A DNA stretch of 64,000 bases from Cladosporium halotolerans. Its lineage: Eukaryota. Location: assembly GCF_011745625.1 (NCBI RefSeq), contig NW_027191452.1, positions 558,001 to 622,000 of the forward strand. The letters run 5' to 3'. The notes beneath the pieces were generated by a model. It made no database searches. It was not told the DNA's origin and saw nothing but the letters and a program-made list of their open reading frames with translations. Shown here piece by piece: positions 16,023 to 20,036 of this stretch (positions within the stretch are counted from its first letter, which is position 1; every line of letters begins with the position of its first letter). The position numbers were made by a program, and so were the translations under genes.

Positions 16023-17671
16023 TCAGATGTCCTGCTTTGCTTGGTCTTTCGGGGAGAGAGACATCGGACCTTCTTTGACCATCAGAGTCATGACTTCGTA
16101 TAGGACATCGGCAGCAGCCTATAAATGTGCATCAGTGTTATTCAGTGAAACGCTTTGTAACTTTGGGACTGACCATGGTAGTAAGCTCGGCGTTCGTGTC
16201 GTAAGCGGGAGCTACTTCAACAATGTCGGCAGCAGCGAGATTGATGCCTTCCAATCCACGAATGATCGTCCTGATCTCACGGGTGCTAGCACAAAAGTCA
16301 GCTCCTGTAAGTATCTGGTGCGATGATCGGTTTACTCACGACCATCCGCCAGTCTCGGGAGTGCCTGTGCCCTGCATTTGATCAATGTTAGAAGAGTCCT
16401 ACTACAAGTTTCGAGCCAACTGACCGGAGCAAAAGCTGGATCAATCGAATCGATGTCGATCGAAAGGTAGACAGGAGAGTTCTTGCCTGTGTTGGTGTGT
16501 CAGAAAATCTCCGGCGCTCGCAATCCGAAATTCCGGTCAACTCACCAACGCGGTTGTGGATTTTCTTGATAATGCCATCAATGCCGATCGTATCGATCTC
16601 TCTAGCTTCAACGATCTCGAACCCGACGTAGCCATCGTTGTCGTAGTCAGAAAGTCCACTGAGAGTCGTGCGGATACCCGCGTGGATGTTGGTATCGTTC
16701 TTCAGCAGACCCTCCATTGCGGCGTGGTAAAAGTAAGTACCATGGTTGATACTGGCCACCTTACTAGGTGCACCGCCGAAGACATGCGGACGCCAGGTAT
16801 CTAAATGTGAATCAAAGTGTATAACAGTGATTGGGCCGTAGGCTTTGTTCATACTGCGAAGCAGAGGCAGCGTGATCGAGTGGTCACCCCCCATGGTGAT
16901 CACCCGGGGGAAAGTCTTGCCTTGCTTCGACAGACCAGGAACACCTGCATTTGTAGCGGGCTCACGCATGAGAACACTGTTGTGTCCTTCTTCAATCTGT
17001 TGAATAGCCCAGGCGGGATCGTACGAGGTGACTGGGACATCGCCACAGTCGAGAACCTTGGCCCAGCTGTTGAACGGGTTGGCGGCGAGCGGGACGTTGT
17101 AACCTCCGCTGCAAAGCACGGTTCAATCAGCAAAAGCATAATACATAGTTTTTCGGGGCAGGAGACATACTATAAGTTCAGGCGACGGCTGCCCTGTCGG
17201 ATACCTTGGGGCCCCTGAAAGACGAGCTTGGTTAGCAATTTCATGGAGCCTGCAACAACCCAATGATCGTATTCAATCGATCATACTCACTGCGAGAATG
17301 TTAGTCAGAGTTGAATGATTGCAAGATGCCAGAGAGTCAAATGATTACCAAAGCGTGCACCTGGACGATAGGAAGTCGAAGTGTCGTGCGGAGCTCCGAG
17401 GAAAGCGATGTCGTACTTGACATTCTCAGTCGCAAGGCAAGGTGCATATTGCAACCGACCGAATGTGCTGATTCCAGAAAAGACAGAATCCGCCTAGATT
17501 CGTTAGCAGTGTTCAAGCAAGTCGAAGATTTATACCAACCTGGGTGCCGCCATCACCAGGTAAGGTGTTGTACCAAAGACCCTGGTGTGGTCCTTGAACA
17601 GGAGTTTGATCGTGATCGGCGTGGCAGTACGCCGAAGTTGCGAGTATGGCAGTAGCAGCAAGGTACTTCAT
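16023..17671 (-). CDS. Agmatinase/guanidinobutyrase-family ureohydrolase with an N-terminal signal peptide
   Basis: MKYLAATAILATSAYCHA signal-like start. Motifs GAPHDTSTSYRPGARFGP, GGDHS, HFDSHLD, SIDIDSIDP, GTGTPETGG and ADIVEVAP. Several introns, including a complex (twin) intron at 17215-17349. Confidence 0.92.
17215..17349 (-). other. Spliceosomal twin intron (stwintron), [D1,2] type with a possible [A2,3] alternative route
   Basis: Minus strand: TTT|G[GTAATC...CTAAC...GCAG]TGAGTA...GCTAAC...TTTCAG|GGG CCC. The internal intron 17348-17290 interrupts the GTGAGT donor of the external intron. Confidence 0.85.
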
Positions 17672-18237: not shown

Positions 18238-19788
18238 TCAGGCGTCACCAATCTCCGCCCCTTGTCCAGAGTCCATTCTCTTGAACGCATTTTGGACCTG
18301 ACGATCCCAATCACTCCAATAGACAATCGCCCATTCTGCGAAGCCCACCAGATACAGAGCAATACATTGCCCAACCCATAGACCCGCTAGCCCCCATCCG
18401 TTGAATGCAAGCCATACACCCAATGGCAAGGCACCGCAGTAGTAGCTTACAAGATTGACCGCCGCACCAACGTGCTGTCTGCCCATCCCTCGCAAGGACC
18501 CACCGCAACTACCATTGAGACCGTCTGCAATCTGAAACAACGCTACGTAAGGTAGTACCTCAGCGGTCAGTCGAATGACCCGATCATCGTCATTGAAGAT
18601 GCGCGCAAAGTCGTTGCGCGTGCCCATCAGAACGGCGAGGACGAGCGTACCCAACAGCATAGAGAGCCAGGCCGCGGTGTTGGCGGCTCGTTTGGCGCCT
18701 TTCGGGTCGCGCGCGCCAAGTAGGTTTCCGACTCTGGCACTCGCTGAAACTCCTAATCCGAAAGGTATCGTGTTGAGCACTTGATCTGCCGTCATAATGC
18801 AAGACTGTGCTGCTAGCGAAATCGATCCTAAGTTACCAGCGGCGATGGCAACAATCTCGAATGCCCACCACTCGGTGCCAACGTGTACCACACCAAGTGC
18901 CGCAATGCGGGCAAATGTGGTGACATTCTCCATCGATTTTCGACTCCATCCGCCCCAACACTCCCATCCGCTGACAAAGCGCGTATATGCCAGCAGAAGC
19001 AGGAAGCTGAGCCAATACGAGATGCCAGTGGCCAAAGGCGCCCCGAGGAGACCCATGGAGAATGTATGGATGAACAAGAAATTGAGGCCGGCATTGATCG
19101 GAGACGTGATGCACAAAACGTATGTGCCAGGTCGCATAATTTCTTGTGCTTGGAGGTATTTCTTCAAGCATTCGAAGTAAATGTACCCAAGCCCGCCGGG
19201 TAACAGAACTTGTAGAAACTTGGCTCCATCGCGGGCAATGAACTCCTCCTGGCCCAATGCGCGAAAGATCGGGCCAGCGCAAAGCCATAATATAGCCACA
19301 GGCACATAGAACAAGGTTAAGACCAAGAACGCTCGTTGAAGAATGATGCCTAGATCATGCATGCTCTTGCCTCCAGTAAAAGATGCGCTGGCGAGAGTGT
19401 CGATAGCCGTTGTGCCGCCCATGCCGATCAACCAGGCAGTACACATTGCCCACATGTAGCAAAAGGCAGAAACAGCCAAAGCCTCGGGCCCTAGACGACC
19501 AACGATGAGGACTGATACTGTCTGCAGAGAATTTTGCAGTGTGTAGGCAAGAATGACCGGTATCGATCCCTTGAACAGGATCCAAAACTCCTGGACAACG
19601 TTTTTGAGGTATGTCTCAGCGTCGATCCCATTTTCATCCGTTTCGCTGATCCTAGATCCAGAAATGATTTCCGGGCGTAATAGTGATGTTTGCTCGTCGG
19701 GCGTATCGTAAGAAACCGATGGGTTTTTGCGGAACATCTCGGGCAGCCATGAACGCCCATCTCGGCTGTCGTTTCGTCTGTCATCCAT
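18238..19788 (-). CDS. MATE family efflux transporter (Erc1-like)
   Basis: Intronless ~516-aa ORF with about 12 hydrophobic segments. MATE motifs GGTTAIDTL, KKYLQAQ, EWWAFEI, RVGNLLGA and GSLRGMGRQ. Confidence 0.92.
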   Translation of the reverse strand: MDDRRNDSRDGRSWLPEMFRKNPSVSYDTPDEQTSLLRPEIISGSRISETDENGIDAETYLKNVVQEFWILFKGSIPVILAYTLQNSLQTVSVLIVGRLGPEALAVSAFCYMWAMCTAWLIGMGGTTAIDTLASASFTGGKSMHDLGIILQRAFLVLTLFYVPVAILWLCAGPIFRALGQEEFIARDGAKFLQVLLPGGLGYIYFECLKKYLQAQEIMRPGTYVLCITSPINAGLNFLFIHTFSMGLLGAPLATGISYWLSFLLLLAYTRFVSGWECWGGWSRKSMENVTTFARIAALGVVHVGTEWWAFEIVAIAAGNLGSISLAAQSCIMTADQVLNTIPFGLGVSASARVGNLLGARDPKGAKRAANTAAWLSMLLGTLVLAVLMGTRNDFARIFNDDDRVIRLTAEVLPYVALFQIADGLNGSCGGSLRGMGRQHVGAAVNLVSYYCGALPLGVWLAFNGWGLAGLWVGQCIALYLVGFAEWAIVYWSDWDRQVQNAFKRMDSGQGAEIGDA

Positions 19789-20036
19789 AGTCAAGGTGTA
19801 CTGAGCTTAATTGCAGTGAAGTGCAGAGAACAAGACCGTATTCGAAGGGGTAGACTGCGCTCTTCAACAACGCTCGCAAGACCCACTGAATCGACTTTGC
19901 ATCTCCCTTCCGACATGCTTATAGATGTTAGCAAGAAAATGTTACGTACCACCTACCAGCTCTGCGAGTACTCGGAAGCCTATCGTTCATGACATGATTC
20001 TCAGAGATGGCGAAAGCCTGAGTTAGAGTATGCATG

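Follow-up and report, generated by a model that had tools for sequence, protein, structure and literature searches.

A probable [D1,2] spliceosomal twin intron in an agmatinase-like gene of Cladosporium halotolerans, with the layout for an alternative [A2,3] excision route

An agmatinase-like gene on the minus strand of a 64,000-nt stretch of Cladosporium halotolerans DNA (hereafter, the window) is interrupted, between codons of a strongly conserved motif, by 135 nt that begin with GG and end with AG. This interval is very probably a spliceosomal twin intron (stwintron): two complete U2-type introns that overlap by a single G and are removed in two consecutive reactions. The sequence reads as a real [D1,2] stwintron that also has the layout for the alternative [A2,3] route. 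Its layout is evident at every base, the mature junction occurs in the RNA of a close relative, the additional G at the upstream border is real, and the same layout is conserved in orthologs; these observations strongly suggest two-step excision, and the arrangement of the splice signals would allow both routes to be used.

The coding region extends from an ATG at 17671 to a stop codon at 16025-16023 (Table 1), and opens with a predicted N-terminal signal-like segment. Exon 4 matches the Pfam Arginase family (PF00491) at 119.9 bits (cut-off 22, E=1.9e-34), and the closest named database proteins are agmatinases and arginase-family proteins of Dothideomycetes, the best being that of Cladosporium fusiforme (90% over exon 4). 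The product is thus predicted to be an agmatinase-like, secreted-type member of the arginase family. The six other introns of the gene are 46-62 nt long, each with a GT donor carrying a G at position 5 and a YAG acceptor; the 5' donor of the stwintron, GTAATC, has no G at that position. Directly upstream, in the same orientation, lies a MATE-type transporter reading frame of 522 codons (18238-19806, minus strand). Among 120 database homologs of the agmatinase-like protein, all 98 that contain the motif RPGxRF continue with GP. Many of the other 22 contain stretches like DKVLAVSISS...FSGGYNVPL, suggestive of a short exon read out of frame and of read-through of the next intron, and the region around the short exon seems to be mis-modelled in many fungi.

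Table 1. Coordinates of the twin intron, its elements and its host gene in the window.
Feature	Position	Strand	Description and basis
Coding region, ATG to stop, arginase-family agmatinase-like gene	16023..17671	-	8 exons, 394 aa; exon model
Exon 2	17350..17493	-	ends ...YRPGARF (TTT at 17352-17350); sequence, exon model, RNA contigs
Complete intervening sequence (stwintron)	17215..17349	-	135 nt, GG...AG; sequence and RNA contig joint
5' constituent intron (internal intron of the [D1,2] route)	17290..17348	-	59 nt, GTAATC...CGCAG
Branch-point element ACTAAC, 5' intron	17300..17305	-	branch A 11 nt before the acceptor G at 17290
3' constituent intron (internal intron of the [A2,3] route)	17215..17290	-	76 nt, GTGAGT...TTTCAG
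76-nt intron on the [D1,2] route	G17349 + 17289-17215	-	sequence
ATG within the 3' intron	17242..17244	-	start codon of the public C. halotolerans protein model
Branch-point element GCTAAC, 3' intron	17231..17236	-	branch A 17 nt before the acceptor G at 17215
Exon 3	17171..17214	-	44 nt, GPQGIRQGSRRLNL(Y); sequence, exon model, RNA contigs

Read on the minus strand, the upstream part of the region runs TAT CGT CCA GGT GCA CGC TTT G(17349) | GTAATC...CTGACTAAC...CGCAG(17290), and the downstream part TGAGTA...TGCTAAC...TTTCAG(17215), followed by the exon 3 codons GGG CCC CAA GGT ATC. Assuming that the spliceosome pairs sites by intron definition, two introns placed head to tail in this manner would be removed one after the other. 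On the [D1,2] route the 59-nt intron would be excised first, so that G17349 joins TGAGT to create GTGAGT, the donor of a 76-nt intron lying in phase 0 between F92 and G93. The same GTGAGT can be read from 17290, and the two introns therefore overlap by one G; with exon 3 beginning GGG, the gene shows both features of the [A2,3] arrangement (a G at the start of the downstream exon and a G shared by acceptor and donor). On that route the 76-nt intron would leave first, joining CGCA to G17214 and so forming the CAG acceptor of the 59-nt intron, which would then occupy phase 1 within the G93 codon. Either order would end in the same mRNA, ...CGC TTT GGG CCC.... A first-pass annotation of the window had proposed this structure, and a re-reading of the sequence upheld each of its coordinates and lengths (17349-17215; 17348-17290; 59 + 76 nt), as well as, to the base, its statements that the interval starts with GG rather than GT and that inner excision yields the GTGAGT donor of the 76-nt intron. 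Its further point, that the reverse order gives an identical mRNA because the next exon starts with G, is borne out by the layout.

The 135 nt can be divided into two valid introns in one way only, as 59 and 76 nt, each constituent having its own donor, branch-point element and acceptor (GTAATC, CTAAC, CAG and GTGAGT, CTAAC, CAG, respectively) at a normal fungal intron length. When the interior was shuffled 20000 times per sequence, with the first 7 and last 30 nt kept fixed, a valid two-intron split arose in 357 trials with the window copy (∼1.8%), and none of the six ordinary introns of the same gene could be so divided.

RNA and DNA evidence came from a search that listed 24 public runs in 14 studies, four of those runs being compared with the window (X13 and X17, RNA; X19 and X20, DNA); runs X1-X12 and others with shares of 0.3-0.5 were left out of the evidence, and bins without RNA-contig cover were counted only if bridged by a contig. 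The metatranscriptomic libraries X13 and X17 belong to separate studies, and each provides one contig (1439 and 1355 nt) that spans the entire coding region and is spliced at all seven sites, with skips of 46, 135, 65, 59, 53, 54 and 55 nt. Three letters are replaced between the sides of the 65-nt joint, and the intron there is therefore the 62-nt intron of the model. At the stwintron site the contigs jump from 17212 to 17348, skipping exactly 135 nt with a placement ambiguity of 2 nt; the possible placements are GG..AG, GT..GG or TA..GG, none of them GT-AG. The mature junction reads TTT GGG CCC (protein ...RF|GPQ...), as the conserved motif demands and as had been anticipated from the sequence. 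With 35 differences over ∼1305 aligned nt in X13, the RNA source is a strain ∼97% identical to that of the window and distinct from it, so that the junction is known from a close relative, in which loss of the intron would give the same mRNA. The X20 DNA contig, from another strain with 46 differences in 1901 nt, agrees with the RNA contigs at at least 12 of the differences listed and retains the full-length stwintron.

No single canonical splice joins these exons correctly. The skip observed in RNA is 135 nt; cutting from GT(17348) to AG(17215) takes out 134 nt and causes a frameshift immediately past ...GARF (...GARFGAPRYPTGQ...), a consequence foreseen by the first-pass annotation and reproduced by an exon model with this cut; and a 144-nt cut loses codons that are present in the RNA.

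Orthologous loci were collected by an exon-4 scan of metagenome contigs, which yielded 80 loci among 420 confirmed relatives, 4 of them ending short of the stwintron site and 76 covering it. The reading frame runs straight through RPGARF-GP in 73 of the 76. In 48 of these the next intron is kept, and they are thus certainly unspliced DNA with no intron at the site; the 25 without the next intron may represent transcripts or genes with few introns. An interruption is seen in just three loci, L031, L035 and L037, each with 148 nt at the same codon boundary as in the window, GG...AG followed by GG. Each of the three can be divided in one way only, into 56 and 92 nt, and exon 3 starts GGC. In L031, GTACGA is paired with a CTAAC 10 nt before CAG, then GTATGC with a CTGAC 17 nt before CAG; in L035 and L037, GTATGA is paired with a CTGAC 10 nt before CAG, then GTAAGA with a CTGAC 17 nt before TAG. 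Branch-to-acceptor distances accordingly match between the window and these loci, at 10-11 nt for the first intron and 17 nt for the second, and shuffling of the interiors across carriers gave any valid split in 351-367 of 20000 trials.

The stwintrons of L031 and L035/L037 are 74-75% identical to each other, and in a MAFFT alignment of all four copies that of the window could not be aligned to L031 or to L035/L037. Since the window and L035 also look unalike by eye in their ordinary orthologous introns 1 and 3, the unalignable stwintron says nothing on homology. The layout is kept while the intron sequence has turned over, as would be expected under selection on the internal splice signals. 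The first-pass annotation had suggested comparing orthologs for a single intron at phase 0 versus phase 1, such twin introns being proposed intermediates of 1-nt intron sliding; a single canonical intron in either phase was found at this site in none of the 76 covering loci, which here offer no evidence for such sliding.

Several further features of the orthologs were recorded. Intron positions differ widely: the window has no counterpart of an intron at codon 134.67 that is common to most loci, and its introns at codons 315.0 and 325.67 stand in place of one at 312.33 in many other loci; L024 and L032 contain a single intron in the whole gene. Near the 5' end of the internal intron of L031, positions 1069-1085 match about 2666-2682 of many loci (about 16996-16980 of the window) at 16 of 17 nt. 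The target is an exon of the same gene, ∼270 nt downstream, coding for IEEGHN, and with E=0.38 per hit the match is probably due to chance in purine-rich sequence. Eight junctions flagged by the splice-site search as having no canonical solution were script artefacts; three were inspected, two proving to be ordinary GT-AG introns and one beginning with GTACGT.

Three other accounts of the 135 nt deserve consideration. They could be removed in one splicing step between non-canonical ends (GG-AG, or GT-GG if the acceptor slips a single base), leaving the internal signals idle; the RNA contigs, as assemblies that drop rare forms, display the end product only and do not exclude this directly. However, GG at one or other end of a U2 intron is in general extremely rare, a complete internal acceptor and donor junction with its branch point has been kept in three lineages despite a diverged interior, and such a junction arises by chance in only ∼1.8% of shuffles per sequence, all of which makes one-step removal very unlikely. 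We consider it highly improbable, too, that the main product of the window strain uses ordinary sites, through either the frameshifting 134-nt missplice or an in-frame canonical intron of 144 nt (17205-17348, minus strand; GT(17348)...AAG(17205)), which would produce RF-GIRQ with three conserved residues deleted. An equivalent in-frame GT..AAG solution of 157 nt was returned for L031, L035 and L037, the same reading is possible in the window, and missplicing of [D1,2] stwintrons via distal sites has been documented in Xylariales (PMC12403724). Against it, the RNA contigs contain 17174-17212 and hence the GPQ codons, and GP follows the motif in every one of the motif-bearing database homologs.

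The remaining account, in which the additional G is a sequencing or assembly error and a conventional phase-1 intron of 134 nt is really present, draws on the position of that base in a GGGG/CCCC homopolymer run. It is scarcely credible: the X19 contig, which is identical to the window over 1901 nt and may be its own source, and the X20 contig are both free of indels at the site, the only indel of X20 lying at 17136 in the next intron. As X20 represents another strain, the base is not an assembly error, which disposes of an objection that the first-pass annotation had itself raised about the G at 17349; moreover, L031 and L035/L037, with different sequences, present the same GG...AG|GG problem. 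A twin intron of 59 and 76 nt is accordingly the reading that we retain.

The public annotation illustrates the effect of such a structure on gene prediction. The NCBI model for this gene in C. halotolerans, WHR41_00225 (294 aa), starts MKLLTKLVFQ|GPQGIR..., its first ten residues being the translation of 17244-17215, within the 3' intron. Residues 11-294 correspond to residues 93-394 of the 394-aa model apart from a single mismatch and a gap of 18 residues in exon 4; the first 92 residues, including the signal-like segment, are missing because of the stwintron structure. That standard predictors would mis-model the gene had been expected by the first-pass annotation, and the stwintron thus explains a faulty C. 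halotolerans gene model. The gap in exon 4, located around SMNKAYGPITVIHFDSHLD, apparently stems from a spurious predicted intron. A database search returned no full-length protein with >90% identity to the 394-aa model. The 144-nt GT...AAG alternative could be another choice of a gene predictor, and this conserved enzyme will be truncated, frameshifted or trimmed by programs that accept nothing but single GT-AG introns.

The upstream MATE gene allowed the loci to be compared as genomic positions. A MATE match was found in 31 of the 80 loci, upstream and in the same orientation as in the window in 27 of them and on the opposite strand in L032-L034 and L039; identity is 88-91% to L001, L003, L029, L035, L037 and L068, with short matches in L005 and L031. 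Given this common neighbor, carriers and intron-free loci represent the same locus in different genomes. In a protein tree of 81 rows, the window, L001/2/29/68, L003/4/5, L031 and L035/37 form one group (SH-aLRT 99). A codon tree built from the agmatinase and MATE sequences of the window plus 17 of the 80 loci (18 rows), with its root on L009/L017/L044/L045, resolves them as (window,((L003-5),((L031,(L035,L037)),(L001,(L029,(L002,L068)))))), and a tree with the four carriers together is rejected (AU p=2.65e-05), for a carrier group that was named after the first tree was seen and in alignments anchored on the window's protein.

Parsimony on the codon tree permits either two gains at the same base or one gain and two precise losses. 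L003-5 and L001/2/29/68 read straight through the site while keeping neighboring introns, those at codons 44 and 106.67 being still present in L001 and L003. We favor one gain and two losses, because the layout and branch-to-acceptor distances agree between the window and L031/L035, because the orthologs differ widely in where this gene has introns, and because clean loss of a whole stwintron has been documented for lipS (PMC5639578). The 48 clearly genomic orthologs outside the small Cladosporium-like group have no intron here. That the stwintron arose whole at such an intron-free site instead, through separate insertions that gave the copies of the window and of L031/L035 an identical position and layout, seems unlikely; if it did, twin introns could be targeted to specific sites as preformed units outside Xylariales. 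RNA support together with presence and absence among syntenic orthologs of close species makes this locus a useful set for studying stwintron origin and loss.

In the publications reached by a literature search, none paired stwintrons with agmatinase, and stwintrons were linked with Cladosporium only in a general review. The claim of a new instance holds to this extent: a stwintron at F92|G93 was not encountered in the literature found, and one known from a Xylariales agmatinase sits elsewhere. The kind itself has been described (PMC5587772), and the present case adds a dual-route-capable twin intron in a new gene and in a new order, Cladosporiales; knowledge of the mechanism is unchanged by it.

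Comparison with the sister stwintrons of Xylariales is the most direct, as it involves the same gene family. A set of 288 sequence-similar [D1,2] stwintrons occupies new intron positions there; near-terminal inverted repeats of 10 nt are present in some, and missplicing that leaves one intronic G is also described (PMC12403724). Supplementary tables (PMC12403724 Table S1, rows 55 and 75; PMC8469720 Table S1) place one in the orthologous agmatinase gene of some Hypoxylaceae/Xylariales; the PMC9024468 supplement holds no arginase-family entry. Like the stwintron in C. halotolerans, the Xylariales agmatinase stwintron is of the [D1,2] type, at a position absent from most orthologs, in a gene for a pfam00491 protein of about 395 aa. 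Unlike it, the Xylariales stwintron lies at ...DTNPF|NGWAK, in phase two, measures 179-184 nt, and is scored NO for [A2,3] in the Daldinia entry of the PMC8469720 table. Twin introns thus occur at two different sites of one gene in two fungal classes. Neither the 64-kb window nor the 284,096 bases of related loci contain a sequence-similar copy of the 135 nt, all matches there being ≤17 nt. Near-terminal inverted repeats are likewise absent from the 135 nt, and its minimum free energy fold is no better than that of shuffled sequences (z=+0.71; 149 of 200 shuffles fold at least as well). In its lack of such repeats and of a significant fold the present stwintron differs from the Xylariales sister type. 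Its sole inverted repeat is internal, a perfect 7-bp hairpin at 17263-17284 (ATGATCG / CGATCAT, 8-nt loop) directly past the 3'-intron donor GTGAGT, which is absent from L031 and L035.

Other stwintrons of Pezizomycotina provide two further points of reference. Where the lipS stwintron has been lost, no intronic sequence is reported to remain (PMC5639578), and the uninterrupted frame of L003-5 and L001/2/29/68 is comparable. Early-diverging fungi have standard introns at the sites of the lipS and bioDA stwintrons (PMC5639578), but a standard intron at the present site was found in none of the 76 covering loci. The closest precedents are alternatively spliced. [D1,2] and [A2,3] stwintrons have been defined such that a [D1,2] stwintron is also [A2,3] when both flanking exonic positions are G, and RT-PCR has revealed both intermediates for dhaoS of Trichoderma reesei, a DHA1 antiporter gene with constituents of 66+88 nt (PMC5587772). 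The statement in the first-pass annotation that dual-route twin introns are known in Pezizomycotina is therefore well founded, with two-step excision and both routes seen by RT-PCR in other genes (PMC5587772). Among 73 dhaoS orthologs, 28 alternatively spliceable and 36 strictly [D1,2] cases were counted, 11 genes of the family have single introns one base apart, and an earlier case is cited from the alternative oxidase of Helminthosporium solani (PMC5587772).

As in T. reesei dhaoS and the H. solani alternative oxidase, the U2 introns of the C. halotolerans gene share a single G, a G immediately precedes the first donor and another follows the last acceptor, two excision orders are possible for one mRNA, and automatic pipelines mis-annotate the gene; in size, too, the 59+76 nt found here are similar to T. 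reesei dhaoS. The present case differs in its arginase-family host and its position at F92|G93, and its two routes are predicted from the layout of the sequence, whereas the dhaoS family, with its single introns one base apart, has no parallel among the 76 orthologous loci. In animals, recursive splicing at zero-length exons (ratchet points) also removes an intron stepwise and regenerates a splice site, with both sites intact (AG|GT). The twin intron would resemble ratchet points in that its removal is stepwise and the first step regenerates a site. Stwintrons have nonetheless been distinguished from recursive splicing (PMC5587772), and in the gene described here, unlike at ratchet points, the second donor or acceptor would come into existence only once the first intron is gone.
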